NCBI GenBank assembly: GCA_005239865.1
Contig: SBBC01000013.1
Span: 36,759-100,758 of the forward strand
Reading direction: 5' to 3'
DNA from: Candidatus Microgenomatus auricola
GTDB taxonomy: Bacteria; Patescibacteriota; Patescibacteriia; SBBC01
DNA length: 64,000 nucleotides
How positions within the stretch are numbered: position 1 is the stretch's first letter; each line of letters opens with the position of its first letter. Positions 3,112 through 64,000 of the stretch are shown here, piece after piece. Below the pieces are notes generated by a model, which worked only from the letters and a program-made list of their open reading frames with translations, searched no databases and was not told where the DNA came from. Both the position numbers and the translations under genes were made by a program.

Positions 3112-5133
3112 ATGCGCGTTCTACTCGCTGGTGGGGGAACCGGTGGATCAGTCACACCACTGTTAGCCATTGCGGCTGAACTCCGTTCGTCGTTTCCGAG
3201 CGTCGAGTTTTTGTTCATCGGTGGGAAACGCGGGCCGGAACAATCGCTCGTGGCCGCAAAAAACATTCCGTTTGTCTCAATCACGGCTGGTAAGCTCCGT
3301 CGCTATTTCTCTTTTCAGAATGTGCTTGATCTCTTTCGTGTCGCAGTCGGTTTCCTGCAGACTTTTTTTCTCCTCGGAACATTTCGACCGGATGTTATCG
3401 TCAGCGTTGGAAGCTTCGTGGCAGTACCAGTGGTCTGGGCCGGCTGGGTCCGGGGGATCCCGTGTCTCATCCATCAGCAGGATATCAGGCCGGGTTTGTC
3501 AAACAAGCTCAGCGCTCCCTTTGCAACCAAGATCACCGTCTCTTTTGAGCAGTCGCTCCGCGATTTCCCGCCAAGCAAGAGCGTCTGGGTGGGAAATCCG
3601 ATTCGGTTAGAACTTCTCCGCGGCGACCGGGAGCGAGCGCGCACACGACTCGGCCTGCGTGACGATCTCCCGGTGGTCCTCGCCTTCGGCGGCGGCACCG
3701 GCGCGTTGCATCTCAATCAACTGGTGGCGGAAGCTGGACTCAATCTCGTTCGACGATGTCAAATCGTCCTGTTGACGGGCAGCCGTGAACACCGTTTTCA
3801 CGTGGAGCATCCAAATTTTCACACCTATGAATTCCTGACCGACGACATGGCCGACGCCTACGCCGTTGCCGATCTCGTGGTTTGCCGGGCCGGCTTGTCT
3901 ACCCTGTCGGAAATCGCCGCGCTCGGTAAGCCGGCGATCGTCGTGCCGCTCCCAGGGACGCACCAGGAAGAAAACGCCAAACACTTCGAACGTAATCAGG
4001 CCGCTGTCATCCTTCACGAAAAAAACCTGCGGCGGGAAATTCTTGAGCAGACCGTTCTCAATCTTCTATCCGACCACGACCGACGATCGACCCTCGGGCA
4101 CAACATCAAAAGACTTACCCGCCTCGATGCTGGCCAGCGATTAGTTAAAGAAATTGCCGAGATCGCCCACCAGCCGGAACTTCGCCGGATTGAACGTCAA
4201 TTGTCCGGTCGTGCGGAGCGGCTGCTGCGAAACGAACCCTTGTCGCGTCACACCAATTTTCGACTTGGTGGACCAGCCGATCTGTTCGTAGTCTGCCGTT
4301 CGCGTCGGTCAGTCATTGAAACGTTCCGCTATCTCCATCAGGCCGAGGTTCCGTACCTTATTCTTGGTGGCGGTGCCAATGTCGTCTGCGCTGATCGCGG
4401 CTATCGTGGCGTGGTCGTCCAAATCAAAAACCAGGAGTTTCTAGTTCACGGCCATGAAGTCGAGGTCGGCGCCGGCATGAATACCGGACAGGTAGCCAGC
4501 CGCTGTCTTCAGGCCGGTCTGGTCGGAATGGAATTTGTGGTCGGCATTTACGGAACGATTGGCGGCGCGCTCCGCGGCAATGCCGGATCCTTTGGGACCG
4601 AGATGAAAGACGTAGTCGTGTCGTGTCAAGTCGTTACTCCGTCGGGAGTGGTCGAGACCTGGACCAACCAACAATTGAAATTCGGGTATCGCCACAGCCT
4701 TTTGAAGACCGTCAGTGCCGCGGTCGTCACCGTACGCCTGCGACTCCGACCTGGCAATGTTCAACAAGCCCATCAAAAAATTGTCGAGTATGCAACGTAC
4801 AAGCGGACGCATCAGCCGCTGAAGTATCCAAGCGCCGGTTGCCTATTCAAGAATTACGAACTCGGGCCGGATGATCTTGAGTTGCGCCAACGGTTTGCCT
4901 CGGTCCTGAAAGATAATCGGATCCCGGCCTGGGCACTGATTGCCGAAGCTGGATGTGCTGGAATGCGGATTGGTGACATCCAGGTGAGCGACCAACACGC
5001 GAACTTTTTTCTTAATCTTGGACGCGGCCGATCTGATGACGTGATCATTTTAGCGAGTCTCGTCAAGCAGAAAGTCCGCGATCTCTTTGGCGTCCAGTTG
5101 CACGAAGAGGTCCAATTTTTGGGATTCCAGTAA
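3112..5133 (+). CDS. murG-murB: MurG (UDP-GlcNAc:lipid I transferase) fused in frame to MurB (UDP-N-acetylenolpyruvoylglucosamine reductase)
   Basis: N-terminal ~355 aa is MurG ('MRVLLAGGGTGGSVTPLLAIA', the C-terminal UDP-GlcNAc binding region 'GGGTGAL' and 'VCRAGLSTLSEIAALGKPAIVVP'). C-terminal ~315 aa is MurB (FAD-binding 'NFRLGGPADLFVV', 'LGGGANVV'). Domain junction near nt 4177. Confidence 0.8.
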   Translation: MRVLLAGGGTGGSVTPLLAIAAELRSSFPSVEFLFIGGKRGPEQSLVAAKNIPFVSITAGKLRRYFSFQNVLDLFRVAVGFLQTFFLLGTFRPDVIVSVGSFVAVPVVWAGWVRGIPCLIHQQDIRPGLSNKLSAPFATKITVSFEQSLRDFPPSKSVWVGNPIRLELLRGDRERARTRLGLRDDLPVVLAFGGGTGALHLNQLVAEAGLNLVRRCQIVLLTGSREHRFHVEHPNFHTYEFLTDDMADAYAVADLVVCRAGLSTLSEIAALGKPAIVVPLPGTHQEENAKHFERNQAAVILHEKNLRREILEQTVLNLLSDHDRRSTLGHNIKRLTRLDAGQRLVKEIAEIAHQPELRRIERQLSGRAERLLRNEPLSRHTNFRLGGPADLFVVCRSRRSVIETFRYLHQAEVPYLILGGGANVVCADRGYRGVVVQIKNQEFLVHGHEVEVGAGMNTGQVASRCLQAGLVGMEFVVGIYGTIGGALRGNAGSFGTEMKDVVVSCQVVTPSGVVETWTNQQLKFGYRHSLLKTVSAAVVTVRLRLRPGNVQQAHQKIVEYATYKRTHQPLKYPSAGCLFKNYELGPDDLELRQRFASVLKDNRIPAWALIAEAGCAGMRIGDIQVSDQHANFFLNLGRGRSDDVIILASLVKQKVRDLFGVQLHEEVQFLGFQ

Positions 5134-9899: not shown

Positions 9900-11546
9900 A
9901 TGCGAAAAAACCCCTGGTTGAGCTTAGCGCTAATTCTCGTTCTGACCGTCGTCGTCGGTACGATCGATTACCCCCGTGGTCCTGATCTTCGAATCGGTCG
10001 CTATTTTAAAGAACTGAAAGTTCACCTGGGATTGGACCTCCAGGGCGGGACGCGTCTGATTTACGACGCTGATACCTCCACCATCCCGGAGCGAGACCGT
10101 GAAGACGCGCTCCAGGGCGTGCGTGACGTGGTTGAACGTCGCGTCAACGCCTTTGGCGTTTCCGAGCCGGTGGTCCAGACTAACCGTGTCGGTAGCCAGT
10201 GGCGGGTGTCAGTTGAGTTGGCCGGCGTGCGCGATATCAACGAAGCCATTCGCTTGATCGGGGAAACGCCATTTCTCGAATTCCGGGAAGAAACGCCACC
10301 AGTTCAACTTCGCACTGACGAGGAAGCCAAGGCCCGCGCTCAAGACGTCTTGCAGAAGATCGGTGCTCCCAACGCGGATTTTGCCGCTTTGGCAAAGGAA
10401 TTTTCCGACGACCCCGGATCGAAAGATCTAGGCGGCGATTTGGGCTTTGCTCGCCGCGGTCAATTCGTCAACGAATTTGAAGTCGCTCTCTTTGACGAAT
10501 TGCAAGACGGTGAGATTGTCAACCAGCCGATCAAAACGCAATTCGGCTACCACCTCATCAAACGGATTGAATCGCGAGCAATCGACGATGGGAGTGGAAA
10601 TCAGACAGCGGAAGTTCATGGCCAGCACATTCTCGTCGCCACCACCCAGCCACCGCCTGAAGGTAACTTTACCCCGACTAAACTGTCTGGAAAAAACCTC
10701 CGCCATGCAACTGTCCAGTTCGATCCAAATACCGGCGAACCGGAAGTCGGACTCCAATTTGATGACGAGGGAACGCAGCTCTTCGCCGACATCACCAAAC
10801 GGAACGTCGGAAAAAGCGTGGCCATTTACCTCGACGGTAGTCCGATCTCGATCCCCGTTGTCCAGCAGGAAATTACGGCTGGCACGGCCGTCATCACCGG
10901 TAACTTCTCACTGGCGGAAGCGAAGGTTTTAGCTCGGCGTCTCAATGCCGGCGCTTTACCCGTACCGATTATGCTCGTCAATCAGCAGACTGTCGGACCG
11001 AGCTTAGGAAAGGAATCGGTAGCGCGGAGTGTCTTCGCTGGCCTGGTTGGGATCTTGGCGGTGGCTGCCTTTATGGTGGCCTACTATCGTCTTCCCGGAC
11101 TCTTGGCGACCTTCGCCTTGGGACTGTATGCGCTCATCGTGTTGGCAGTTTTCAAGCTCTGGCCAATTACCTTGACGCTAGCTGGGGTGGCTGGATTTAT
11201 TCTTTCAATTGGCATGGCGGTTGACGCGAACGTTCTCATCTTCGAACGCTTTCGTGAAGAACTTCGGAGCGGACGCCCACTCCAGAGTGCGCTGGACGAA
11301 GGATTCCGGCGGGCCTGGCTCTCGATTCGCGATTCAAACGTCTCGACGCTCATCACCGCTCTTATTCTGGCCTGGTTCGGAACAAGTATTATCAAGGGTT
11401 TTGCCATCACGCTAGCCATTGGCATCATCGTCAGCATGTTTACTGCCATTTCCGTCTCGCGGACTCTCTTACGGGTGGTCGGAACGCAGTGGCTCGACCG
11501 TCGCCGAGGATTAATCGGCGCAAACATTCCGCCGGCATCATCCTAA
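9900..11546 (+). CDS. secD: Protein-export membrane protein SecD with a parvulin-type PPIase domain inserted in the periplasmic P1 region
   Basis: SecD start 'LGLDLQGG', P1 head and 6 C-terminal TM segments. Residues ~131-255 carry parvulin motifs ('GGDLGFARRGQFVNEFEVALF', 'GEIVNQPIKTQFGYHLIK'). Confidence 0.85.
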   Translation: MRKNPWLSLALILVLTVVVGTIDYPRGPDLRIGRYFKELKVHLGLDLQGGTRLIYDADTSTIPERDREDALQGVRDVVERRVNAFGVSEPVVQTNRVGSQWRVSVELAGVRDINEAIRLIGETPFLEFREETPPVQLRTDEEAKARAQDVLQKIGAPNADFAALAKEFSDDPGSKDLGGDLGFARRGQFVNEFEVALFDELQDGEIVNQPIKTQFGYHLIKRIESRAIDDGSGNQTAEVHGQHILVATTQPPPEGNFTPTKLSGKNLRHATVQFDPNTGEPEVGLQFDDEGTQLFADITKRNVGKSVAIYLDGSPISIPVVQQEITAGTAVITGNFSLAEAKVLARRLNAGALPVPIMLVNQQTVGPSLGKESVARSVFAGLVGILAVAAFMVAYYRLPGLLATFALGLYALIVLAVFKLWPITLTLAGVAGFILSIGMAVDANVLIFERFREELRSGRPLQSALDEGFRRAWLSIRDSNVSTLITALILAWFGTSIIKGFAITLAIGIIVSMFTAISVSRTLLRVVGTQWLDRRRGLIGANIPPASS

Positions 11547-12604: not shown

Positions 12605-13753
12605 ATGGAATCAAACGAAACGCAAGAAACGCGAAAAGTTTCCAACTCGATCCTTGATCGGGTGCTTTCGAGTCAGCAAGCCGCCGCGATTGAGCATTTT
12701 GTTCCGAGCGAGACGTTTTCTTCATTAGCACGATCGTTATTGGAAAAAGAGCATGATGTGCTCCGCCGGAGATTCGGCCTCCACGGTCAGGATCCGGAAA
12801 CACTCGAGGAAATCGGAAAATTATACGCCGTCACCCGCGAACGTATTCGTCAGATTGAAAATACGGGTGTTTTGAAAATGCTCCACGCGAAACACTACCG
12901 TGAGACGATCACCCCGGTCGAGCGGCTGCTCATGAACGTTTTTAACACCTACGGCGGCATCATCGAGGAGCAACTGTTTTTTCAAGAAACGTTGAGCCAC
13001 GGCGGTAACTCTCCGTCGGAACAACGGGCCCTGACCTTCCTGCTGACGAAACTCTTGACCCATCGTTTTAGCTACCATCCACCGGATCAGGAACTCCGTG
13101 CTAGCTGGAAACTCAAGGCCCAGTCACTGGAACTCGTACGTCAGGTGATCAGCGACCTCATGACCATCGTCCAAGAACGCCGCCAGCCGCTCTTGCGGGC
13201 GGAGCTCCTAGAAGCGTTCCGTGCCCGTCCGCTCTTCCAACGGCATGCTTCATTGTTGAACGACGAGGTTGTCAGTTCATACCTCAATCTGTCCGTCGCC
13301 ATCAGTCATAATCCCTTCGGCGAGTACGGCCTCACGACCTGGGGCACCATCATTCCGAAACGAATGAACGATAAAATCTACCTGGTTCTCAAGAAGGCCG
13401 GTCGGCCGCTCCACTTCACCGAGATTGCCAGACAGATTAATCAGACCGGATTCGACCATCGCCGGGCCTATCCGCCGACCGTACATAACGAATTAATTCT
13501 CAATCCCCAGTACGTCCTCGTCGGACGGGGGATTTACGCCCTGGCTGAATGGGGCTACAAACCCGGCGTCGTGGCCGAGGTCCTGGTCGACATTCTCAAA
13601 CAGGAAAATCGAGCCATGACGCGCGACGAACTGATCGATCGAGTAGCCAAACAACGACTGGTCAAGCGGAACACCATTCTCCTAGCCCTGACGAACAAGC
13701 AACTTTTTCGACGGCTAGCTTCGGGCGCGTATGAACTGGTCAAACAAACCTAA
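12605..13753 (+). CDS. DNA-binding protein with an N-terminal sigma-70 region-4-like HTH and a C-terminal HARE-HTH domain
   Basis: Region 4 signature 'LRRRFGLHGQDPETLEEIGKLYAVTRERIRQIENTGVLKM'. C-terminal 'YLVLKKAGRPLHFTEIARQI...VLVGRGIYALAEWG' resembles HARE-HTH. No sigma region 2 is present. Confidence 0.6.
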   Translation: MESNETQETRKVSNSILDRVLSSQQAAAIEHFVPSETFSSLARSLLEKEHDVLRRRFGLHGQDPETLEEIGKLYAVTRERIRQIENTGVLKMLHAKHYRETITPVERLLMNVFNTYGGIIEEQLFFQETLSHGGNSPSEQRALTFLLTKLLTHRFSYHPPDQELRASWKLKAQSLELVRQVISDLMTIVQERRQPLLRAELLEAFRARPLFQRHASLLNDEVVSSYLNLSVAISHNPFGEYGLTTWGTIIPKRMNDKIYLVLKKAGRPLHFTEIARQINQTGFDHRRAYPPTVHNELILNPQYVLVGRGIYALAEWGYKPGVVAEVLVDILKQENRAMTRDELIDRVAKQRLVKRNTILLALTNKQLFRRLASGAYELVKQT

Positions 13754-13763
13754 ATCTTGAACC

Positions 13764-15233
13764 ATGGAAATCATTCTCGATTTAAGCGGCGTCAGCGGTG
13801 CGCAGGGGATTCCGAACCCCCTGGCGGTCATGTGGACGCTCTTGACCCACGGTGGCTGGATCGCGCTCATTCCCGTTTTTTTGTGGGGTGGATTCGCCAT
13901 TTGGCTCAACTATATCCAGGGGGTCTACGCCATGCGACAAAAGTACGTACTGCTGGCGATCGATGTACCGAAAGAAAATGAATTAAGTCCTAAAGCCGTT
14001 GAGCAAGTTTTTGCGCACCTCTCGGGAATTTACAAGAGTGGGAATAAAAAAGAGCGGTACCTGCGGGGTTACCTCATGCCATCGCTGTCACTCGAACTGG
14101 TTAGTATTGAGGGATATGTCCAGTTTCTCATTCGTACTCCGGCAAAATTCCGCGACCTAGTCGAAGCGACCATCTACGCACAATATCCGAATGCCGAAAT
14201 TTCTGAAGTCGGGGATTATGCCACGGAATTCAAAGCCGAGTTCCCGAACGAGGAGTACGACATCTGGGGGACGGAGCTCAAACTGACGAATAAACAGCAC
14301 TACCCGATTCGGACCTACCCCATGTTCGAGCACTCACTGTCACAGACCTTCTATGATCCAATGGCTAGCATTCTTGAATTTTTTTCGCGGATGCAGCGGG
14401 GTGAACAAGTGTGGTTACAAATTGTTATCACACCGCCGCGGACCGATGATTGGCGCAAGGACGGAATGCGGCTTGTCAAAAAGCTGATTGGCGCACGCGG
14501 GGCGCCGTCTGGCATGCCCGGCTACGTCAACATCCCGTCACAAGTTCTCCGCGGGATCTATGAAACTGCGGCCGCCTCGGTGATTGCTCCAGGCACGTCG
14601 GAAGAACGCCGGAACGAAGAGAATCAACCACCGAGCTTAATGCTCCATCTCCCGCCAAACGAGCGAGCGGTGGTTGAACAGGTTGGCATGAAAATCTCTA
14701 AAATTGGTTGGTTAACGAAAATGCGGCTTATCTACATCGGTAAACACGGCGTCTTCACAAAAGACCGAATTTCGCCGCTCATGGGCGCACTGCGACAATT
14801 CAACACCCTCGACATGAACGGATTCACGCTCGACTCGAAGACCAAAACGAACATTGATTATTTTGTCAATCCACGGGTCAACTGGCGCAAACGTCGCCTG
14901 ATGCTCGGCTACAAGTATCGCAGCAACTGGCGTGGTCGCAATCTGTTCATCATGAACGTTGAAGAACTCGCCACAATTTTCCACTTCCCCGTGACGACGG
15001 TAGTCAAAGCACCGCGAGTTCAAAAGACCGAAGCCAAGCGCGGTGAGCCGCCGGCCGCGCTGCCAGTCGAATCGGAGTTTCAACGCGTCCGCCCGTTTAC
15101 GCCCGGCCAATCGGCCTTTCCGCCGCCAGCCGAGCGACCAGCGGTTGAACTGCCAACGATTGTCACCCCGCCAGAACTCAAACCGACTCCACCCCGCAAG
15201 GGTGGCCATGCCCCCGGTAATCTTCCGGTCTAG
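13764..15233 (+). CDS. Membrane-anchored hypothetical protein (one N-terminal TM segment and a Pro-rich C-terminal tail)
   Basis: TM segment 'GGWIALIPVFLWGGFAIWL'. No family recognised. Pro-rich tail 'PPAERPAVELPTIVTPPELKPTPP'. Sits 10 nt after the HTH gene and 12 nt before the ATPase gene. Confidence 0.45.
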   Translation: MEIILDLSGVSGAQGIPNPLAVMWTLLTHGGWIALIPVFLWGGFAIWLNYIQGVYAMRQKYVLLAIDVPKENELSPKAVEQVFAHLSGIYKSGNKKERYLRGYLMPSLSLELVSIEGYVQFLIRTPAKFRDLVEATIYAQYPNAEISEVGDYATEFKAEFPNEEYDIWGTELKLTNKQHYPIRTYPMFEHSLSQTFYDPMASILEFFSRMQRGEQVWLQIVITPPRTDDWRKDGMRLVKKLIGARGAPSGMPGYVNIPSQVLRGIYETAAASVIAPGTSEERRNEENQPPSLMLHLPPNERAVVEQVGMKISKIGWLTKMRLIYIGKHGVFTKDRISPLMGALRQFNTLDMNGFTLDSKTKTNIDYFVNPRVNWRKRRLMLGYKYRSNWRGRNLFIMNVEELATIFHFPVTTVVKAPRVQKTEAKRGEPPAALPVESEFQRVRPFTPGQSAFPPPAERPAVELPTIVTPPELKPTPPRKGGHAPGNLPV

Positions 15234-15245
15234 CCGCACGGTGCC

Positions 15246-16964
15246 ATGAAGCCCATTCAACCTTCACTCTCAACCGTCCCGACCGTCCTCCCACCGCTGC
15301 AGACGCAGCCGTCACATGAGGATCGGATTACCTACTTCGCGGAAACGAACTTTCACAACGTTCGCCGTAAGTTTGGCATTAAGACTGATGATCGTCGGCG
15401 TCACATGTATCTCATTGGCAAAACCGGCATGGGCAAGTCGACCGCATTGGAAAACATGGTCATGGCGGACATCAATGCCGGCAACGGGCTGGTGGTCATT
15501 GATCCGCTGGGCGACTTGGTGGAAAAAGTGATTGATTTCATCCCGTCGCACCGCGTCAACGACATCATTTACTTCAATCCAGCCGACTTCGATCATCCGG
15601 TCGCCTTCAACGTGCTCGAAGCTATTGATCCGAATCACCATCACCTCGTCGCCTCCGGACTGATCGCGGTCTTTAAGAAAATCTGGGTTGATTCCTGGGG
15701 ACCGCGCTTGGAATACGTTTTGCGCAACTGCATTCTGTCATTGCTCGAATATCCTGGCTCAACCTTGCTTGGCGTCACCCGCCTGCTGGTCGACAAGAGG
15801 TATCGCGCCAAGATCGTAGCGCGGGTGTCTGATCCGATTGTCAAGGCCTTCTGGGTCGACGAATTCGCCGCCTACTCCAACCAGTTTCGGACCGAAGCGA
15901 TTAGCCCGATTCAGAACAAGGTCGGTCAATTCCTGTCCTCATCGGTCATTCGAAATATCGTCGGTCAGCCCAAGTCCTCATTTGATCTCCGCTGGCTGAT
16001 GGACGAAGGCAAGATTCTCCTCATGAATCTCTCCAAGGGGCGCATCGGCGAAGACAACAGCTCGCTGCTCGGCGCGATGATGATTACAAAACTTCAGTTG
16101 GCGGCCATGAGTCGGATTGACATTCCCGAGTCCCAACGGCGAGACTTCTACATGTACGTTGACGAATTCCAAAACTTCGCGACCGAATCTTTCGCTACAA
16201 TCCTGTCTGAAGCGCGCAAATACCACCTCAACCTGATTATTGCCCACCAGTACATCGAGCAGCTCTCGGAAACTGTTCAGGCGTCGGTCTTCGGGAATGT
16301 TGGCACGATTGCCTGTTTCCGCATTGGTGCGGCCGACGCCGAATTCCTGGAGAAAGAGTTTGCTCCGATTTTTACGGAAACTGATCTCGTCAATCTGGCG
16401 AAATACGATATTTACCTCAAGCTCATGATCGACGGTATCGCATCTGATCCTTTTTCAGCCACCGGACTTCCGCCGATCGATCAGACCTACCAAAAAGAAG
16501 ACAACCGCGATAAAATCATTCGTGTTTCTCGTGAACGGTATGCCACACCCCGCACCGTGGTCGAGGAAAAAATAATGCGCTGGAGTGGCGTTGGCGAAAT
16601 CTTCCGAGGCAGCGCCGACGAAGAAAATACGGCTGCCCAACGCGAGCAACGTAGAGCCGCGGCCGTCAACGAACCACCAGCTAAACCAAAGCTTGATCTT
16701 GCTCGCGATGAGATTGTGGAAGAACCCACGGTCGTCGCCACACCACCGCCCATCTCGCTCAACGAAGCACTGAAGAAACCACCAGTCACGTTTGGACAGC
16801 CGAAATCACCAGCCCGGCCAGCCCTCCGTTTACCCGATCAGCGACCCACGCCGCCGACCAGACAATTTCGGGGTGAGCACCTGCGTCGACGACCGCCGCC
16901 TCCCATCCGCCCGGAACGACCGGCCCCAATTCCGCTACAACCAGGCAGAACCGTCCGACCGTGA
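15246..16964 (+). CDS. TraD/TrwB/VirD4-like (coupling-protein / HerA-FtsK superfamily) P-loop ATPase with a Pro/Arg-rich C-terminal tail
   Basis: Walker A 'GKTGMGKST'. An inserted all-alpha-like region. Walker B 'YMYVDEFQNF', then 'LIIAHQYIEQL' (the QS..QL-like motif of coupling proteins). No N-terminal TM domain. Confidence 0.55.
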   Translation: MKPIQPSLSTVPTVLPPLQTQPSHEDRITYFAETNFHNVRRKFGIKTDDRRRHMYLIGKTGMGKSTALENMVMADINAGNGLVVIDPLGDLVEKVIDFIPSHRVNDIIYFNPADFDHPVAFNVLEAIDPNHHHLVASGLIAVFKKIWVDSWGPRLEYVLRNCILSLLEYPGSTLLGVTRLLVDKRYRAKIVARVSDPIVKAFWVDEFAAYSNQFRTEAISPIQNKVGQFLSSSVIRNIVGQPKSSFDLRWLMDEGKILLMNLSKGRIGEDNSSLLGAMMITKLQLAAMSRIDIPESQRRDFYMYVDEFQNFATESFATILSEARKYHLNLIIAHQYIEQLSETVQASVFGNVGTIACFRIGAADAEFLEKEFAPIFTETDLVNLAKYDIYLKLMIDGIASDPFSATGLPPIDQTYQKEDNRDKIIRVSRERYATPRTVVEEKIMRWSGVGEIFRGSADEENTAAQREQRRAAAVNEPPAKPKLDLARDEIVEEPTVVATPPPISLNEALKKPPVTFGQPKSPARPALRLPDQRPTPPTRQFRGEHLRRRPPPPIRPERPAPIPLQPGRTVRP

Positions 16965-18921: not shown

Positions 18922-20747
18922 AAGCCCTAGCCTTACGAAAAAAATTTCTTGCCTATTTCCAAAAACAAGAACACGTCGCTGTTTCTTCCGCGTCACTGAT
19001 TCCGGACAACGACCCGTCAGTCCTTCTGACGGCGGCCGGGATGCAGCAGTTTAAGCCATATTTCCTTGGCCAACGTCGACCGGAGGAGGACTTCAAGAGT
19101 CGCCGATTAACTACAGTCCAGCGTTGTTTTCGAACGTCCGACATTGACACGGTAGGCGACGATTCACATTTGACGTTTTTCGAAATGCTCGGCAACTTCG
19201 CCTTCGGTGACTACGGCAAAGACGCGGCTATTCGTTTCGCCTGGCAATGTCTCACCCGCACGTTTCGAGTACCGGCCGGCCGCTTGTGGGCGACTATTTT
19301 TAGTGGTGACGAGCATTCCGTCAAGGATTTCGAGGCGTTCAAGGTTTGGCAGGCGATTATCCCACCCGAGCGAATTCGTGAATTCGGACGCCACGAGAAT
19401 TGGTGGGGGCCGGCCGGCCGTTCCGGTCCCTGCGGACCGTCGTCAGAAATCCACATCGACCTGCGAGAAACGCCTTGCGAGCGAAAGGAGCGGTGCGCAC
19501 CAAACTGCCCGTGCGGCCGGTTCCTCGAGCTCTGGAATCTTGTCTTCATGGAACATTTCCAGGATGAGGCCGGAAATTTTCGTTCACTCCCAGCAAAAAA
19601 TATCGATACCGGCATGGGACTTGAACGACTGGCGATGGTCACGCAAAAACGTTCGTCGGTCTTCGCGACTGACCTGTTTGTTCCAATTATTAACGCCATC
19701 GAGCAGGAACCTGGTTTTGGCAACGGACTCAGCCAAGCCGAGCGCAATCGTCGGTTGCGAATTATCGCTGACCACATCAAGGGAGCCGTCTTTCTGGTGG
19801 CTGACGGTGTTCGTTTTTCGAACAAGGAACAAGGCTACGTCCTTCGACGCGTCTGGCGTCGGGCACTCGACCAGTTTTCCACTCCATTAGCATCGTACCC
19901 AGGAGTGGTTGATGCAATCATCAATCTCTATCACCATCCTTACAACGAGTTGGGACGGCAGCGATCCGCCATCCACACGATCCTGCGGGCGGAAACCGAG
20001 GAGTACCTCAAGCACTTAAAAACGATTGTCGAACGCGTCAAAACCAAGCTACGCAAACGGCGCCCGCCGGCAGGGGACAATCAAGCACCGGTCACGGCGA
20101 CACTCAGTCCCAACGAGGCCTTCGAATTATTCACCACCTACGGAATTTCGCTTGACCGTCTGCGGCGCGAAGGATTCACCTTCGACGAGTCGGCGGTCGA
20201 GAAAAAATTTGCCGAGCACCGAAAGAAATCTCGAGCCGGGGCAGTCAAGAAATTCGGCGGACACGGACTCGGGTACACCCTTGATACCACAAAATACACA
20301 CCTGCTGAAACGGCACGCGCGACCCGCCTGCACTCGGCCACCCACCTGTTGCATCAAGCGCTTCGCCTCGTCTTGGGAAACCATGTTCGCCAAAACGGAT
20401 CAGACATTTCTCCAGAACGTTTGCGCTTTGACTTCCAGCACCCGACAAAACTTCGGCCGGATGAACTCCGAAAAATTGAAGACCTCGTCAACGAACAAAT
20501 CCGAAGAAACCTTTCGGTCACGCGGGTGGACATGGACCTTGAACAAGCACTCCAGTCCGGCGCCCTGTCTTTCTTCAAAGAACGCTATCCCCAACGAGTC
20601 ACGGTATATTCAATCGGCGAATTTTCAAAAGAAATTTGCGGCGGTCCGCATGTCCGGCAGGCCAGCGAGATCGGTCGACTGAAAATCATTTCGGAAAAAT
20701 CAAGCGCCGCCGGTGTCCGGCGAATCAAAGCAATCGTCGAGCCCTAA
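18918..20747 (+). CDS. alaS: Alanine--tRNA ligase, compact form lacking the C-Ala domain
   Basis: AlaS catalytic N-terminus and the editing HxxxH motif '[11 protein letters not shown]'. Only 609 aa. Confidence 0.85.
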
Positions 20748-20782
20748 AACGTGTGTTCAAGTGAACGACGCGGGACAGGGGG

Positions 20783-20811
20783 TTGACAGTTATATCACCC
20801 GCCTGTATACT
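20783..20811 (+). promoter_or_regulatory. Sigma70-type promoter, TTGACA-N17-TATACT
   Basis: Consensus hexamers upstream of infA. Confidence 0.6.
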
Positions 20812-20922
20812 TCACCCCGAACCGCAAGAATCTGTGTCAGAAGCGCATTATCTCAATCGTCTGAAGGCACAAGTATCCCTCGATCAGGGATTCGACTTGC
20901 GATCACGCGCAGGCATTTTGTT

Positions 20923-21207
20923 ATGACACGACGACCGTTTTTCCGGTCGAAGAAGCTCCAGAAACAACGGCGACAACTGGCTCCGCCAACGCCAAAAAAC
21001 AAAGGGTTTCTTGAACTCATTGGGACTGTTCATGAGATGCTTCCAAACGCCTCATTCCGGGTTCATCTCGAGAATGGCCATCAAATTCTCGCCCATCTCT
21101 CTGGCCGTATGCGCCTGAATAAAATCAGTGTTCTGCCTGGCGACAAAGTGACGGTCGAGATGACGCCGTACGATTTGACGAAAGGCCGGATCATCTATCG
21201 CCATTAA
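20923..21207 (+). CDS. infA: Translation initiation factor IF-1 with a ~25-aa basic N-terminal extension
   Basis: S1-like IF-1 core '[60 protein letters not shown]'. The ATG at 20923 is the first in-frame start codon upstream of the core. The longer ORF from 20713 is likely spurious. Confidence 0.85.
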
Positions 21208-36535: not shown

Positions 36536-37543
36536 ATGTTCATCAAGCGCATCGGCATTGATCTCGGCACCACCAACACTCTCGTTCACCTCCCGGGCAA
36601 GGGGATTGTCTTGAATGAACCGTCAGTAGTCGCGATCTCACTCACCGATCGCAAGATCCTAGCGGTCGGCAACGAGGCCAAGGAGATGATCGGCCGGACA
36701 CCCGATTCAATTGTCGCCTTGCGACCGCTGAAAGATGGCGTGATTGCCGATTATCGCACGACCGAAGCGATGCTCCGTTACTTTATCAATAAAGCCACGG
36801 GCGGCATTCACATTTTTCGGCCAGAGGTTATGATTGCTGTGCCGGCCGGTATCACCTCGACCGAACGACGAGCAGTCATCGACGCGACGATCGCTGCCGG
36901 AGCTAGAGCCGCCTACATCATCAAAGAACCGATTGCCGCTGCTATCGGTTCGAACATTCCGATCGGCTCGGCGTCCGGACACATGATCATTGACGTCGGC
37001 GGCGGGACGACCGAGATCGCTGTCATTAGTTTGGGCGGCATTGTGGCCAATACCAGCGTCCGGATTGGTGGCAACAAGCTCGACGCCGCGATCCAAGAGT
37101 TTATCCGTAAAAAGTATGGGCTGGCGATCGGCGAGCGGACGGCTGAAGAAATGAAAATCTCGATCGGCTCAGCCACACCACTTGAACCGAAACTCTCGAT
37201 GGAAATCCGCGGCCGGGACGTCGTCAGCGGTCTGCCGCGGACGATGACCGTGATGTCGGACGATGTGACGGAAGCAATCGAGGATGAGCTCAGCGGCGTC
37301 ATTCAAGCAGTCAAACAAGTGCTTCAGGAGACGCCGCCCGAACTTTCAGCCGACGTCATTGACAAAGGCATGGTCCTGTCTGGCGGGTCGGCCCAACTCC
37401 GACAACTCGACCGTCTCCTCGCCACCGCGACCGGCGTCCCAACCTACGTAGCTGAAGAACCCCTTCTGTCGGTCGCGCGCGGGACCGGCATCGCACTCGA
37501 CAACCTCGAATCGTATAAACGTAGCATCCTGGCGGCGAAGTAA
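36536..37543 (+). CDS. mreB: Actin-like rod-shape protein MreB (paralog 1)
   Basis: 'IGIDLGTTNTLVH', 'DVGGGTTEIAVISLGG' and other actin-fold motifs. Confidence 0.85.
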   Translation: MFIKRIGIDLGTTNTLVHLPGKGIVLNEPSVVAISLTDRKILAVGNEAKEMIGRTPDSIVALRPLKDGVIADYRTTEAMLRYFINKATGGIHIFRPEVMIAVPAGITSTERRAVIDATIAAGARAAYIIKEPIAAAIGSNIPIGSASGHMIIDVGGGTTEIAVISLGGIVANTSVRIGGNKLDAAIQEFIRKKYGLAIGERTAEEMKISIGSATPLEPKLSMEIRGRDVVSGLPRTMTVMSDDVTEAIEDELSGVIQAVKQVLQETPPELSADVIDKGMVLSGGSAQLRQLDRLLATATGVPTYVAEEPLLSVARGTGIALDNLESYKRSILAAK

Positions 37544-38735: not shown

Positions 38736-38813
38736 GACTTGCCGGTTCTTCGTGTTTCTGCTACAGTAGCAGTCACGAAAAACTCCTCGGCCAGTTCAAG
38801 CCTGCGCAAATCC

Positions 38814-39839
38814 ATGACATTAGGAAAGCGAGCGACCGCGCCTTCTGTTCTTCGGCCTGACGAACGGTGGGGCGTAATTGGTAACCGCGATCGCCTAGAA
38901 CGATTACAACGCCTGGTCCACCAGGGGCTCGACAGCCACGCTTTTTTGTTTATCGGTCCGCGCGGCATTGGAAAAACGACTATGGCTCGAGCCTTTGCCA
39001 GCGCCTTGCTCTGCGAACGACCGCAGGCGGGAACGGCTTGCGGCGATTGCGTACAATGTGCAGCCCTTAGTCAAGAACGACACCCAGACATCATCGAATT
39101 CACGACGGCGGGTAAACGACTTGGCATCGCCGACGTTCGCCTGGTGCTTCGAACCCTAGAACGACGTCCGACGCTGGCCGCTCGGCGGATCGCGATCCTC
39201 GACCGGGCCGAATTCATGACCGAGGAAGCGGCCAACGCCCTCCTCAAAGTCCTCGAGGAGCCGCGTGGTGACACCGTCCTCCTCCTGACCGCAACCAGTA
39301 CGAGCCGTCTGCCAGCCACCGTGGTCTCCCGCTGCTCACTCCAACACCTGACGGTCGTGGCGAATGAGCTGATTCGCCAGCGCCTAGTCGAACAAGGGGT
39401 CAAAAAAGCCGAGGCCACCGATCTGGCCGTCTTCTCTGACGGACGGCCGGCCTTCGCGATCTTCCTGGCGGAACAACGCGGGGCCTACGAACAGGCGCTG
39501 GGGGACACTCGGCAGTTCCTCGACCTCTTTCAGACCTCACTCCATGAACGGTTCGCCTTCGCCGAAACACTCGGGCCGCGATGTGCGGAAATCCAGTCAA
39601 GCGAAACCCTGATCGAACGGTGGGAATCAATTTGTCGACGTCTGCTCCATCTGACGCTTGGTCGCAATGATCGGGGGCCGCTCGCCGAACAGCTGCGGGT
39701 ACTGACTCGACGCCTAACGCTCCCAGCGCTCCTCACAACCTTTGATCATCTGCGCAGGCTCCGCGAACAGCTTCATCCCTCGGGCAACGCCCGACTCCTC
39801 CTCGAATCGCTGTTTCTTCATCTTCCGCGACTGGTATGA
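38814..39839 (+). CDS. holB: DNA polymerase III delta' subunit
   Basis: 'HAFLFIGPRGIGKTTMARAFASALLC' and the zinc module 'CGDCVQCAAL'. The ORF track starts at a TTG at 38739; the ATG at 38814 is preferred. Confidence 0.75.
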   Translation: MTLGKRATAPSVLRPDERWGVIGNRDRLERLQRLVHQGLDSHAFLFIGPRGIGKTTMARAFASALLCERPQAGTACGDCVQCAALSQERHPDIIEFTTAGKRLGIADVRLVLRTLERRPTLAARRIAILDRAEFMTEEAANALLKVLEEPRGDTVLLLTATSTSRLPATVVSRCSLQHLTVVANELIRQRLVEQGVKKAEATDLAVFSDGRPAFAIFLAEQRGAYEQALGDTRQFLDLFQTSLHERFAFAETLGPRCAEIQSSETLIERWESICRRLLHLTLGRNDRGPLAEQLRVLTRRLTLPALLTTFDHLRRLREQLHPSGNARLLLESLFLHLPRLV

Positions 39840-42582: not shown

Positions 42583-43638
42583 ATGTTTGGAAAATTCTTA
42601 AGTAAATTCTCGCGGGACATGGGGATTGATCTGGGCACGAAGAATACCCTCGTCTACGTCAAGGACAAGGGCATCATCATCAATGAACCCTCGGTCGTCG
42701 CCGTCAACAACAAAACTAACCAGATCCTCGCAGTCGGCGAGGAGGCCCGCCGGATGGTCGGAAAAACACCGAGCCACATCGTCGCCATTCGACCGCTGAT
42801 GAGCGGCGTCATCTCCGATTTCGAAGTAACCGAACGAATGTTGAAACACTTCATCGAAAAGGTCAACCGCGAAAGTGCCTCACTCCTTTCCCGGCCGCGC
42901 GTCGTGATCGGGATCCCACTCGGCGTCACCGAGGTCGAGCGCAAAGCGGTGGAAGACGCGACGCTCCACGCCGGCGCCCGGGAAGTATTCCTGATCGAGG
43001 AACCGATGGCGGCGGCCATCGGCGCCCGCCTACCCATTCAGGAGGCCTCCGGAAATATGGTCGTTGACATGGGCGGCGGAACCACCGAAATTGCCATTAT
43101 CTCACTCGGCGGGATTGTTAGTTGGCGATCACTCCGGATCGCCGGCAACGAACTTGACCAGAACATCATTCAGTATGCCCGTGAACACTTCAATCTCCTC
43201 CTCGGTGAACGGACCGCCGAAGAATTGAAAATCAAGATTGGTGGCGTAACCGAGGACGTTGAACTTCTCGAGACGCCGATGCGCGGACGCGACCTCCTGA
43301 CCGGCTTGCCGAAAGAGGTGATCATTTCAACCGCCCACCTCCGTGAGGCCATGAGCCGTTCCATCAACCTGATCATCGAAAACATCAAGGCCACCATCGA
43401 GGCGACGCCGCCCGAACTAGTCGCCGACATTTACTCCCGGGGAATCGTGTTGACTGGCGGGGGAGCACTGCTGCGAGGGTTCGCCCAGGCAATCCAGAAC
43501 GAAACCCATATTCCGGTCCATATCGTTGACGATCCCTTGACCGCGGTGGTCCGCGGCACCGGGATCGTCCTCGATGATCTTGACAATCTTCGCGACATCC
43601 TCGTCCTCTCGACCAACGAATCATCAATAACTAAATAA
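42583..43638 (+). CDS. mreB: Rod-shape protein MreB (paralog 2, in the mreBCD-mrdA operon)
   Basis: 'MGIDLGTKNTLVYV' and 'DMGGGTTEIAIISLGG'. Confidence 0.9.
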   Translation: MFGKFLSKFSRDMGIDLGTKNTLVYVKDKGIIINEPSVVAVNNKTNQILAVGEEARRMVGKTPSHIVAIRPLMSGVISDFEVTERMLKHFIEKVNRESASLLSRPRVVIGIPLGVTEVERKAVEDATLHAGAREVFLIEEPMAAAIGARLPIQEASGNMVVDMGGGTTEIAIISLGGIVSWRSLRIAGNELDQNIIQYAREHFNLLLGERTAEELKIKIGGVTEDVELLETPMRGRDLLTGLPKEVIISTAHLREAMSRSINLIIENIKATIEATPPELVADIYSRGIVLTGGGALLRGFAQAIQNETHIPVHIVDDPLTAVVRGTGIVLDDLDNLRDILVLSTNESSITK

Positions 43639-61479: not shown

Positions 61480-62277
61480 ATGCCCTTCATCGGCGCTGCA
61501 ATCGTCCCCCACTCACCCCTCCTCTTGCCGTCGATCGGCAAGGAGTACCACCGACAAACAAAAAAAACCCAGCGCGCGCTGGCCGCAGTCAGTCATGAAC
61601 TCTACGGACTCCAGCCCGATGTGCTCGTCATTCTCCATCCCCATGGTCAGCACCTCGAGGAGGCGTTTGGCGTCAACATCGCCGATCGCTTCACGATCGG
61701 ATTCACCGAATTCGGCGACCTCGTCACCACGACCACACGACCGGGTGCCGTCACCCTCGGTCAACTGATCAGGGAACGAGCCGAGGATAGCGGCTTCCCG
61801 GTAACGCTCATCCACGATCCTTCGCTCGGGTATGCGACCGGTGTGCCGCTGGTGCTCGTGGCCGATCATCTTCCGGCGGTCGGGTTGCTGCCGATCCGAC
61901 CGACCACGCTTGATCCCCAGACCCACGTCCATGCTGGTCGCCTCCTGGGAGAGGAATTTGACGCCGCCCGACAACGCATCGCGGTCATCGCCAGCGCCGA
62001 ACTCTCCCACCATCTCACGCCAGCCGCCCCGGGCGGTCAGCGCCCCGAGGGCAAAACCTTCGACGCCACGGTCCTTCGTTCGCTCCAAAAAAAATTCTGG
62101 GCAGAACACTTGCTTCGGATCGATGACGTGATTGTGGAACAAGCGGATGCCTGCGGCTATCGGCCACTCTTGATGCTGGCTGGCCTCGTGGCTCGAAAAA
62201 ATATCGCGATCCGAAAACTGGCGTACGAACATCCATTCGGGATTGGCTTGTTAACCGCCAATCTCACGTTAACCTAA
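61480..62277 (+). CDS. LigB-family (class III extradiol dioxygenase / DODA-like) protein
   Basis: 'GAAIVPHSPLLLP' N-terminus and 'HPHGQH', consistent with the LigB/AmmeMemo-like fold. 265 aa. Confidence 0.5.
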   Translation: MPFIGAAIVPHSPLLLPSIGKEYHRQTKKTQRALAAVSHELYGLQPDVLVILHPHGQHLEEAFGVNIADRFTIGFTEFGDLVTTTTRPGAVTLGQLIRERAEDSGFPVTLIHDPSLGYATGVPLVLVADHLPAVGLLPIRPTTLDPQTHVHAGRLLGEEFDAARQRIAVIASAELSHHLTPAAPGGQRPEGKTFDATVLRSLQKKFWAEHLLRIDDVIVEQADACGYRPLLMLAGLVARKNIAIRKLAYEHPFGIGLLTANLTLT

Positions 62278-62284
62278 ACCTACC

Positions 62285-64000
62285 ATGATTGCCCGCGTCG
62301 CCCCACTCCTGCGTCTGCCGCGGGCGCTTGGCGTCTTCGACTACCGTCTTCCGGAAACGATGACTGTTGTCGTCGGGAGTATCGTCCGAATCCCCTTTCG
62401 CCGCCGCTCACACATCGGCGTGGTTCTGGAACTCGCGTCAACTAGCTCCCTCGCTCCCGCAAACATCCTCGCCCTCAACGCAGTCATCAGTCAGTCTCCC
62501 CTCCTGCCCCTCCCCCAACTACAAGCGGCGCAACAGATCGCGCACGAGGGTTTTACCTCAATCGCCACGACCCTGCGAAGCATCATCCCGTCGCTCCGGC
62601 TCCGGACGGCCATCAGTCTTTTGCCACCGTCATCGCCAGCACCGGATCGAACCTGGCGGAATGAACTTGATAGTCTAACGGGCTCCCAACAGGACGTCGC
62701 ACTGATCTCGTACCTCAATGATCACTCTCGGACGACCTTCTACGAACATCTGGTGGCGCTCGCACAAAAACACCATCGTTCAACTCTACTCATCGTGCCA
62801 ACGATCGCCCGCCTGCGGGCCTACGCTCGCCTCTTTCCTCGCGCCTTCCTTCTCCACCACGGTCTGCCCGCGAGGCAATACCGCGAACTCTTTCTCAACA
62901 TCCGCAATGGACAGTCACTCATCGTCATCGGAACACGTTCGGCCATTTTCGCCCCGCTGACTGATCTCGGACTGGTCATCATTGACGACGAGGACGCCGA
63001 CGAACACGTCCAAGAAGAGCCGAGTCCGCGTTTCGACTGTCGAAGTGTGGCGGCCGCTCTGGTTACCCGGACCGGCGGAAAACTGGTGCTCATGAGTCGA
63101 CTCCCCTCGCTTCAATCTTTTCTCCAATATGGCGTTCACGAACATCTTGATGCCCCTCCACAAATCACAGTTGCGTTTGTTGACCTTGATGAACAGCGTG
63201 ACCAGCACGACTACCGAATAGTGCCTGATGTAACGCTGGCCGCGCTTCAGCGGGTTGCCGCGCAAGGGCGTCGCGCCGTCATCGTTCACCATCGCCGCTC
63301 GCTCTTCGGTTCGCTCGAATGCCGGGACTGCGGCTTCATCCCGACCTGCTCGATCTGCCGCGTCCCGCTGCGACAGGACGGGGCAGTTCTCGTCTGTCGT
63401 CACTGCGGGCAGACCGCCAACATTCCCTTGACCTGTCCGCGCTGCCGGGGTTACTCGCTGCGCGGACGCGGTCGTGGGATTGAGTATCTCGTCCTGGAAC
63501 TCCGCCGGGCTGGTCTCAAACCGGTCATCGCCGGGGCGACCGACTCCGATCGCGGGCTGATCCTCGTGACCACCCCGTCGCGCCTGGATGAACTTGATCT
63601 CTCGGAGGTCACCCTGGCCGTCATCACGCGTTACGATAGTTTGCTCTCCGTGCCCCGGATTGATGCCGAGGAACGCGCCCGACGGATCCTCCGCATGCTG
63701 GCGGCGAAAATTTCAGTTGGTGGAACGTTGTTGGTCCAGGGGTCGCGCGGTTACGAAGAACTTTCCCGAACGGTGTTCGACGATCGTGTGCTCGAGCAGG
63801 GGCGGGAGGAACGCGAACGCTTCGGCTACCCGCCCGCCTGGAACCTCCTGGCCTTACGCCGCCGCTTAGTGGCACGCGCGCCGGGCCTGACCGCGAACGA
63901 ACTCGTCCGCCGACTCAAACGACACGATCCGACCTTGCTCATCATTGGACCACAGCGTTCCCGCGGTCGGTCCCGCATCGATCCGGGTGGCGATCTCGTC
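62285..64000 (+). CDS. priA: Primosomal protein N' (PriA)-like, 3'-partial, with a degenerate Walker A
   Basis: The ORF is open to the end of the window and so is absent from the ORF track. PriA 3'-DNA-binding N-terminus ('VFDYRLPE...VRIPFRRRSHIGVV'). A helicase core where the P-loop 'GSGKT' is replaced by 'DHSRTT'. A DEEH-like 'DDEDADEH'. An intact Cys4 zinc module 'CRDCG...CSIC...CRHCG...CPRC'. Confidence 0.7.
   Translation, partial: MIARVAPLLRLPRALGVFDYRLPETMTVVVGSIVRIPFRRRSHIGVVLELASTSSLAPANILALNAVISQSPLLPLPQLQAAQQIAHEGFTSIATTLRSIIPSLRLRTAISLLPPSSPAPDRTWRNELDSLTGSQQDVALISYLNDHSRTTFYEHLVALAQKHHRSTLLIVPTIARLRAYARLFPRAFLLHHGLPARQYRELFLNIRNGQSLIVIGTRSAIFAPLTDLGLVIIDDEDADEHVQEEPSPRFDCRSVAAALVTRTGGKLVLMSRLPSLQSFLQYGVHEHLDAPPQITVAFVDLDEQRDQHDYRIVPDVTLAALQRVAAQGRRAVIVHHRRSLFGSLECRDCGFIPTCSICRVPLRQDGAVLVCRHCGQTANIPLTCPRCRGYSLRGRGRGIEYLVLELRRAGLKPVIAGATDSDRGLILVTTPSRLDELDLSEVTLAVITRYDSLLSVPRIDAEERARRILRMLAAKISVGGTLLVQGSRGYEELSRTVFDDRVLEQGREERERFGYPPAWNLLALRRRLVARAPGLTANELVRRLKRHDPTLLIIGPQRSRGRSRIDPGGDLV

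Follow-up and report, generated by a model that had tools for sequence, protein, structure and literature searches.

A PriA homologue without a P-loop, predicted to be ATPase-dead, in a Kerfeldbacteria-like Patescibacteria bacterium

The priA-like open reading frame and the identity of its product

The window analysed here is a stretch of 64,000 nucleotides of contig SBBC01000013.1 (Candidatus Microgenomatus auricola, assembly GCA_005239865.1), and at its end lies an open reading frame (ORF) whose product is a homologue of the replication restart protein PriA without a P-loop. This priA-like ORF (62285..64000, + strand, as are all the features of the gene given below) is a single frame which, by translation, runs from an ATG at 62285 to the last window base at 64000 without any stop, and its 572 codons begin 7 nt past the stop of the upstream gene (61480-62277). 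A database protein search yielded P0001, a protein of 605 aa that is 100% identical across all 572 aa and supplies the full-length sequence past the window. By comparison with it, 33 residues and the stop, about 102 nt, lie beyond the window end, in agreement with a preliminary description of this DNA, made from its letters alone, which had taken the ORF to be cut there. The gene is possibly missing from the gene track because its frame runs off the window. Nothing supports the numerous ORFs seen in the other frames and on the minus strand of 62285-64000, which G+C-rich coding DNA usually brings with it.

A protein identical to the ORF product was found in two sources, and the frame is continuous and colinear with 17 homologues coming from independent assemblies (NCBI, JGI, ENA, Logan), so that the frameshift for which the preliminary description had allowed is not there. 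Since these independent homologues also carry the same degenerate motifs, an assembly artefact was ruled out together with the frameshift. A pseudogene was ruled out as well by the intact ORF and by the architecture common to the 17 homologues.

The only Pfam match of the protein was PF17764, the PriA 3' DNA-binding domain (3'BD), at aa 14-102 (E 1.1e-16); the scan gave no match for DEAD, Helicase_C, the PriA zinc-ribbon (PF18319) or PriA_C (PF18074). In NCBIfam the 14 best matches were all PriA models, and the RecG, Mfd and Csl4 models came lower, at E 0.004 or worse. In a phmmer search of PDB sequences, the PriA proteins of E. coli and K. pneumoniae were matched at E about 1e-27. An AlphaFold2 (AF2) model of the protein, built on a 53-sequence alignment, had a mean predicted local distance difference test score (pLDDT) of 91.5 and a predicted template modelling score (pTM) of 0.89. 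The nine best PDB matches of this model found with Foldseek were all PriA chains (E 2e-41 to 4e-30, template modelling score (TM) up to 0.77), the top one being 8fak_H of E. coli PriA (E 2e-41, TM 0.77) and the second 6dcr, an engineered winged-helix (WH) deletion of E. coli PriA (E 8e-38), and the next group, formed by Mfd, UvrB, RecQ5 and RecG, appeared at 1e-11 or worse. As modelled, the protein has the two RecA-like superfamily 2 (SF2) lobes with PriA-specific topology. The PF17764 match, the NCBIfam PriA models and the phmmer and Foldseek results all bear out that the product is a PriA homologue, as the preliminary description had proposed.

Degeneration of the ATP-site motifs

The motifs were aligned with those of E. 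coli PriA, whose reference sequence was taken from MG1655, and with those of canonical PriAs. The motif I (Walker A) remnant is YLNDHSRTTFY (aa 143-153, 62711..62743), opposite GVTGSGKTEVY of E. coli (from G226), the conserved Tyr after the motif serving as anchor. GSGKT is thereby paired with DHSRT, K230 with R149 and T231 with T150, and no glycine is left in motif I. The destroyed P-loop of the preliminary description, seen in the segment NDHSRTTFYEHL (aa 145-156, nt 62717-62752), therefore stands, except that the equivalent of GSGKT given there, HSRTT, is one residue off. Thr150 is retained at the Walker Thr position, unlike in most of the 187 P-loop-less proteins described below. Neither G..G.GK[ST] nor GK[ST] was found anywhere in the 605-aa protein by a pattern scan, and the sole GK belongs to GGKL, located on the strand of motif III at around aa 264; a conventional Walker A elsewhere in the protein is thus absent. 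In the AF2 model only three residues connect the first strand of lobe 1 (138-142) to its first helix (146-162), too few for a phosphate-binding loop or anion hole.

Motif II is altered rather than destroyed. It reads IIDDEDADEHVQ (aa 232-243, 62978..63013) opposite VIDEEHDSSYKQ of E. coli, with the acidic core kept and the DExH histidine lost, in an alignment whose spacing is ambiguous by one residue (IIDDEDADEH). The string DDEDADEH, on which the preliminary description had relied, is indeed present (aa 234-241, nt 62984-63007), and D235, E236, D239 and Q243 are invariant in the clade of 18 close homologues treated below. In motif III, GSATP of E. coli is replaced by MSRLP (63092..63106), with loss of SAT, and R272 and P274 of the remnant are invariant in the clade. 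About 20 aa of lobe 2 are deleted ahead of motif V relative to E. coli, and motif V itself (63563-63601) reads LVTTPSRLDELDL opposite LIGTQMLAKGHHF, with VTTPSRLDE aligned and the motif V Gln and Gly lost. Finally, motif VI is MLAAKISV (63695-63718) opposite QVAGRAGR, and both arginines are gone. The alignment to the E. coli motifs proposed in the preliminary description thus revealed that motifs III, V and VI are degenerate too and that the WH domain is missing. As read from these motifs, the protein would be ATPase- and helicase-dead, and the prediction of such a loader is strengthened because the motif VI arginines, the motif V Gln and Gly and the SAT of motif III are also lost, and because a large clade shares the loss.

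Retained DNA-binding and zinc elements

The 3'BD occupies aa 1-105 (62285..62599), and its 3'-end pocket is F18-D19-Y20 (62336-62344), aligned with F16-D17-Y18 of E. coli, in which Asp17 and Tyr18 touch the 3' terminal nucleotide (PMC5778457). Of these three, F18 and Y20 do not vary in any of the aligned PriAs, and D19 does not vary within the clade. The domain deviates from that of E. coli in that G37 is R39 and K61 is not conserved. With the PF17764 match and these pocket residues, the conservation of the DNA-binding N-terminus claimed in the preliminary description was confirmed. The WH domain (E. coli 109-181) is gone, leaving an alignment gap of about 85-100 residues, and in its place there is a 16-residue linker (aa 106-121, 62600..62647), at which pLDDT dips to 82 and which is the least conserved part of the protein, with none of its 16 columns invariant.

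Lobe 1 of the helicase fold (aa 122-300, 62648..63184) was delimited with the AF2 secondary structure, Foldseek and the alignment. It holds motif Ib, VIGTRSAIF (aa 214-222, 62924..62950), in which G216, R218 and S219 of the PriA signature GTRS are invariant in 53 of the 53 aligned PriAs. The cysteine-rich region (CRR; aa 343-395, 63311..63469) is inserted in lobe 2. None of the alignments made shows any variation at its eight cysteines (C346, C349, C355, C358, C371, C374, C384 and C387), and their pattern, CXXC...CXXC...CXXC...CXXC, is the PriA two-zinc arrangement (PMC5778457). The zinc module of the preliminary description is thus intact; a Cys4 zinc finger, as which it had been described, was ruled out, the site being an eight-Cys CRR with two predicted zinc sites.

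The second part of lobe 2 (aa 396-500, 63470..63784) retains the PRxDAxER element within the conserved PRIDAEERARR (63653-63685). The C-terminal domain (CTD; aa 501-572, 63785..64000, cut by the window end) contains FGYPPAW, and P516 and P517 of this YPP motif are invariant across all aligned PriAs. PF18074 gave no score for the CTD here; the Foldseek alignment of the fold reaches the C-terminus, and one P-loop-less relative had a weak PF18074 match.

Conservation within the close clade

The 17 homologues, two of them named Candidatus Kerfeldbacteria, have 588-609 aa and 38-47% identity, with the same architecture and the same motifs missing. Together with the window protein they form an 18-member clade, across which 84 columns are invariant. 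In this clade the remnants of the ATP site are of average conservation or lower: the mean majority fraction was 0.47 for the P-loop remnant (1/11 columns invariant), 0.45 for motif V (0/13) and 0.54 for motif VI (0/8). The corresponding values were 0.88 for motif Ib (6/11 invariant), 0.80 for motif II with the adjacent loop (9/25), 0.78 for motif III (3/9), 0.69 for the CRR (16/53) and 0.84 for aa 448-467, around the PRIDAEERARR element (8/20). This pattern is as expected of a protein that gave up ATP and kept its DNA and its partners.

A profile search of genome contigs detected two members of the clade, L006 and, from Kerfeldbacteria, L007, besides 78 loci with ordinary PriAs of other phyla. 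The L006 contig (CAYGGS010000002.1), whose priA-like product shares 44% identity with the Kerfeld-clade protein, is deposited as an uncultured Gammaproteobacteria bacterium, probably through wrong binning or labelling of a metagenome-assembled genome (MAG).

Loss of the P-loop across Patescibacteria

When the profile of the clade was run against 1.84 billion representatives, 19,198 relatives were obtained. The best 150 of them were nearly all of 590-670 aa, and among these best 150 only 4 of the 141 new representatives had GSGKT and GRxGR, the remainder being without both. A second profile, made of the P-loop-less proteins outside the Kerfeld clade, returned the names Candidatus Parcubacteria, Falkowbacteria, Magasanikbacteria, Patescibacteria group and Gracilibacteria, and brought up canonical short PriAs in which all motifs are intact. 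All the named P-loop-less relatives are Patescibacteria (Kerfeld-, Falkow-, Magasanik-, Terry- and Parcubacteria), and for this reason the loss is independent of the Deinococcus-Thermus PriA lineage. P-loop loss is thus a lineage trait, the normal state of priA in a large group of uncultured Patescibacteria.

The retrieved set contained 188 sequences without a Walker A match, reduced to 187 (median 627 aa) once P0242, with a canonical EVTGSGKT, was moved, and canonical sequences of which 34 were under 700 aa and 145 were long. From the position of Walker A, near residue 155 in the short canonical PriAs versus 241 in the long ones, it follows that the short ones are also without WH; the absence of this domain is not peculiar to the P-loop-less forms, being shared by the canonical short PriAs of Patescibacteria. 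Column statistics of the 187 P-loop-less against 90 canonical sequences gave, for the three P-loop glycines, 90-100% in the canonical set versus a place outside the top five residues in the P-loop-less one. The Walker Thr fell from 100 to 9% and the motif VI arginines from 100 to 7-9%, and the motif V Gln and Gly were lost in the P-loop-less group. The Walker lysine position, K in 100% of the canonical sequences, was K or R in 67% of the P-loop-less ones, and the third motif II residue was E in 90 and 81%, respectively.

When a neighbour-joining tree was built, 184 of the 188 sequences lacking a Walker A match came out as one pure clade. With the motif columns masked, 178 of the 187 P-loop-less proteins, the window protein among them, were still one pure clade in a distance tree, a kind of tree which for fast-evolving sequences is prone to long-branch attraction. 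These trees provisionally indicate one main ancient loss of ATPase and several minor ones, and the P-loop-less sequences outside the main clade look like separate, partial decays. In the homologue set, P0106, P0111 and P0120 (691-741 aa) have neither P-loop nor motif VI, and P0111 and P0120 keep an insert in the WH region, which suggests further independent ATPase losses outside the short Patescibacteria group.

The literature was searched, with incomplete coverage, and no description of PriA motif loss in Patescibacteria was found, an absence that is no proof of novelty. One paper mentioning both PriA and Patescibacteria deals with gene neighbourhoods in the phylum UBP6. UniProt flags some actinobacterial PriAs as being without detectable helicase domains, a point on which a mycobacterial review is silent. 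The public names of the P-loop-less PriAs vary among hypothetical protein, primosomal protein N' and replication restart helicase PriA (P0382, P0386, P0004, P0012), and the cut-offs of curated models miss these proteins.

Gene neighbourhood

The contigs of the Kerfeld clade share the order P-type ATPase, M23 peptidase, gltX, wecG, a gene of unknown function, LigB/Memo, priA-like, def and fmt. The gene order of the window is identical to that of L002 and L004 up to priA; it ends before def, and the downstream context (def, fmt) was inferred from the homologous contigs. The arrangement priA-def-fmt is the classical position of priA. It was also seen at a P-loop-less gene of Magasanikbacteria (on a 984-kb contig), at a second P-loop-less gene and at a canonical PriA of the candidate phyla radiation (CPR), and no other priA was present at the priA-def-fmt locus in the contigs examined. 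Because the gene occupies this slot, it is the orthologous priA of a Kerfeldbacteria-like Patescibacteria (CPR) bacterium and no extra paralogue.

The upstream neighbour (61480..62277, + strand; PF02900, E 8e-24) is a gene of the LigB/Memo family, of the AmmeMemoRadiSam 'B' type, and is probably in one operon with priA, given the 7-nt gap. A gene of this family lies directly upstream of the P-loop-less priA in every lineage examined (L002 9197-9994; L004 9196-9996; L086 7207-7998; L087 6683-7994). In L087, an AMMECR1 gene follows the LigB/Memo gene and a radical SAM gene is located about 5 kb further upstream (347-1372). In L088, secDF and not LigB/Memo stands upstream of a canonical CPR priA.

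Other genes in the window

The ORF at 44-2011 (655 aa) joins a PgeF/YfiH-like Cu-oxidase_4 domain, whose profile match starts from position 46, to a complete MurD-type Mur ligase, and represents a fusion or, alternatively, two genes with no stop codon to separate them. That at 3112-5133 (673 aa) contains MurG (Glyco_transf_28 N and C) and MurB (FAD_binding_4, MurB_C) domains and is an apparent murG-murB gene fusion. The SecD protein (9900-11546) carries a PpiC-type peptidyl-prolyl isomerase (rotamase) domain between the first periplasmic segment and the P1 head, and a protein of 382 aa (12605-13753) presents the unusual pairing of a sigma-70 region 4 near the N-terminus with a HARE-HTH domain. 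Amid housekeeping genes lies a gene for a 572-aa protein with TrwB/VirD4-type coupling-protein domains (15246-16964), preceded by a 489-aa ORF without any Pfam match (13764-15233); the coupling protein may be part of a Patescibacteria type IV secretion machinery. A 164-aa ORF (20713-21207) overlaps the end of alaS and has an IF-1 domain only in residues 101-163, its N-terminal extension being most likely an ORF-calling artefact with the true start further downstream. Finally, two MreB paralogues (36536-37543 and 42583-43638) are encoded about 5 kb apart; mreC, a small ORF without a Pfam match and a PBP2-type transpeptidase gene follow the second, and between and upstream of them stand a gene for a DUF4012 protein and, at about 25-38 kb, a long cluster of glycosyltransferase genes.

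Proposed function and alternative explanations

The protein is probably a PriA pseudohelicase, which would recognise forks and, with no need of ATP, recruit the replicative helicase; both abilities are attributed to it here by analogy with the characterised PriAs. In such a mechanism, the 3'-end pocket of the 3'BD would recognise abandoned forks or D-loops, and the retained motifs Ia and Ib with the loop next to motif II would add DNA contacts. The lagging-strand single-stranded DNA (ssDNA) would be clamped between lobe 2, the CRR and the CTD, and the surface formed by CRR and CTD would recruit DnaB, directly or through an adaptor, without ATP turnover. The duplex lagging arm would be neither unwound nor cleared. 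As a speculation, the lobes might be held together by a structural salt bridge between the retained Lys/Arg and the acidic motif II.

Several observations weigh against this proposal. Every NCBIfam PriA match of the protein, including those of the PRK05580 models, is far under the curated cut-off (191 bits for NF004066 with a cut-off of 813, and 152 bits for TIGR00595 with one of 230). In 67% of the P-loop-less proteins the place of the Walker lysine is taken by Lys or Arg, and conservation of the acidic residues of motif II is strong; this could mark a residual non-canonical nucleotide or metal site instead of a structural salt bridge. The CRR residues that contact PriB in E. coli, T482 and H483, are not conserved (D438 is kept as D348), and the partner should therefore differ from that of E. 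coli. Gene-by-gene annotation of the 64-kb window found no dnaA, dnaB, dnaC, dciA, priB, dnaT or dnaD; the sole replication-related gene in the rest of it is a holB-like clamp-loader subunit gene (38739-39839). Besides, the window is 64 kb of a genome of roughly 1 Mb, which leaves room for a canonical priA elsewhere.

That the protein was repurposed, binding branched DNA through the 3'BD and the CRR for fork protection, recombination intermediates or initiation, is in our opinion unlikely. It would explain why the residues that bind the partner in the PriA-PriB complex of E. coli (PMC10175261) are not conserved and why the constant LigB/Memo neighbour is no replication gene, and the conservation of motif II and its adjacent loop, far above what a dead site needs, hints at a retained or new surface function. 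However, the ancestral priA-def-fmt position is kept with no other priA at the locus, the 3'-end pocket, CRR and CTD that remain are exactly the parts used in E. coli restart, and a helicase-dead PriA does restart in E. coli (K230R) and apparently in Deinococcus. An active NTPase or helicase with a non-canonical site, built from the Lys/Arg at the Walker position and the acidic motif II, is very improbable. In its favour are the frequency of K/R in the Walker lysine column, the E that 81% of the P-loop-less proteins have as third motif II residue, and the invariance of D235 and E236 in the clade. Yet the three P-loop glycines, both arginine fingers and the motif V Gln and Gly are lost, the predicted loop is too short for an anion hole, and the Mg-ligand Thr is kept in only 9% of the 187 proteins, although the window protein has Thr150. 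Moreover, in several members of the close clade (P0005, P0007-P0010) the Walker lysine is replaced by Leu or some other residue that is not basic, and K230R alone kills the ATPase of E. coli PriA (PMC5778457).

We also give very little credit to a degenerate paralogue or decaying gene with a canonical PriA elsewhere in the genome. The small part of the genome that is visible, the canonical short PriAs of other Patescibacteria, the NCBIfam scores under the cut-offs and the entries named hypothetical protein would be in line with it. Against it stand the intact ORF, the 84 invariant columns kept among 18 homologues at 38-47% identity, the orthologous priA-def-fmt slot, also used by canonical CPR PriAs, and the single pure split that holds 178 of the 187 P-loop-less proteins with the motif columns removed. 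In addition, genomes of this group are of about 1 Mb and rarely have redundant paralogues. As for an assembly or frameshift artefact in one sequence, its probability is practically negligible, as nothing spoke in its favour and given the continuous frame, the identical protein from two sources and the same motifs in the NCBI, JGI, ENA and Logan homologues.

The pseudohelicase proposal can be extended to a single ATPase loss early in a major radiation of Patescibacteria (one pure clade with at least 178 clusters at 50% identity), followed by long maintenance as an obligate ATP-independent fork-recognition adaptor, a possibility to which we give somewhat less than even credence. If it were true, the Lys/Arg and the acidic motif II would be a salt-bridge lock fixing the lobes in a DNA-clamping conformation, DnaB would be recruited directly by the CRR and CTD of PriA without PriB, DnaT or DnaC, and helicase-independent restart would extend over a large slice of bacterial diversity.

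The usual picture of PriA is that of a universal helicase whose motifs are kept save in Deinococcus-Thermus, and the present data change it. Putatively dead and canonical short PriAs, side by side in sister lineages, constitute a natural experiment on which PriA functions need ATP. They also bear on the reloading of DnaB where a bacterium has no PriB, DnaT or DnaC, a question raised before (PMC5778457). Given priA300 and Deinococcus, the finding should be no shock to specialists, and its value is increased by the scale of the loss.

Comparison with known PriA systems

The protein is best filed beside the PriA pseudohelicase of Deinococcus-Thermus, as a case of separate origin. The pseudohelicase of that lineage was defined as an orthologue of PriA that matches Walker A and B poorly, among other things through a change of Lys to Arg in GKT (PMC4504706). 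In D. radiodurans PriA, which has Arg in place of the Walker lysine, neither ATPase nor helicase activity could be measured (Lopper, Boone & Morrow 2015, PMC4504706), so that the precedent given in the preliminary description is a real one. For ssDNA its Kd is about 215 nM and for forks about 108 nM, and it also interacts with DnaB (PMC4504706). The window protein resembles it in the degenerate Walker A and B, in the Arg that replaces the Walker lysine (R149) and in a presumed restart role without unwinding, and the domains responsible for the DNA-binding activity that D. radiodurans PriA retains are present in it. In contrast, it belongs to a Patescibacteria lineage and has lost every P-loop glycine, both arginines of motif VI and motifs III and V, as well as the WH domain and some 20 residues of lobe 2, so that 605 aa are left. 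D. radiodurans PriA was assayed biochemically, whereas the window protein is known from its sequence and a predicted model. The Patescibacteria set is a second natural group of putative PriA pseudohelicases, much larger and more radically eroded.

With the PriA of E. coli and K. pneumoniae (4NL4, 6DGD, 8FAK) the protein shares the fold, the Asp/Tyr pocket of the 3'BD, motif Ib GTRS, the eight-Cys CRR, a PDFRxxER-like element, the YPP motif of the CTD and the gene linkage typical of priA. It differs from them in having no Walker A, DExH histidine, SAT, motif V or VI, or WH domain, and from E. coli PriA also in that T482 and H483 are not conserved and neither PriB nor DnaT is encoded nearby. In the structure of E. 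coli PriA with PriB and a fork, the CRR pivots, a pore for ssDNA is formed with lobe 2 and the CTD, and the partner-docking surface becomes exposed; the CRR is the docking site of PriB (PMC10175261).

The enzymatically dead, primosome-competent variants of E. coli PriA, K230R (priA300) and K230A/D, are the functional model for the window protein. K230R has no ATPase, helicase or translocase activity and supports restart through the PriA-PriB pathway in vivo and in vitro (PMC5778457). However, these variants were made in the laboratory by point mutation, their helicase core is intact in all other respects and they need PriB and DnaT, whereas the loss in the window protein is natural, ancient and spread across many motifs. 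The WH deletion of E. coli PriA (6DCR) resembles it in that the 3'BD is joined directly to the helicase core, but is an engineered construct with an active ATPase core. Finally, the short canonical PriAs of Patescibacteria (for example P0276, P0291, P0295 and P0310 of Gracilibacteria; 638-678 aa) have in common with the window protein the size class, the absence of WH and the priA-def-fmt order, and differ from it in that they keep GVTGSGKT, DEEH, GSATP, GTQM and QxxGRxGR.

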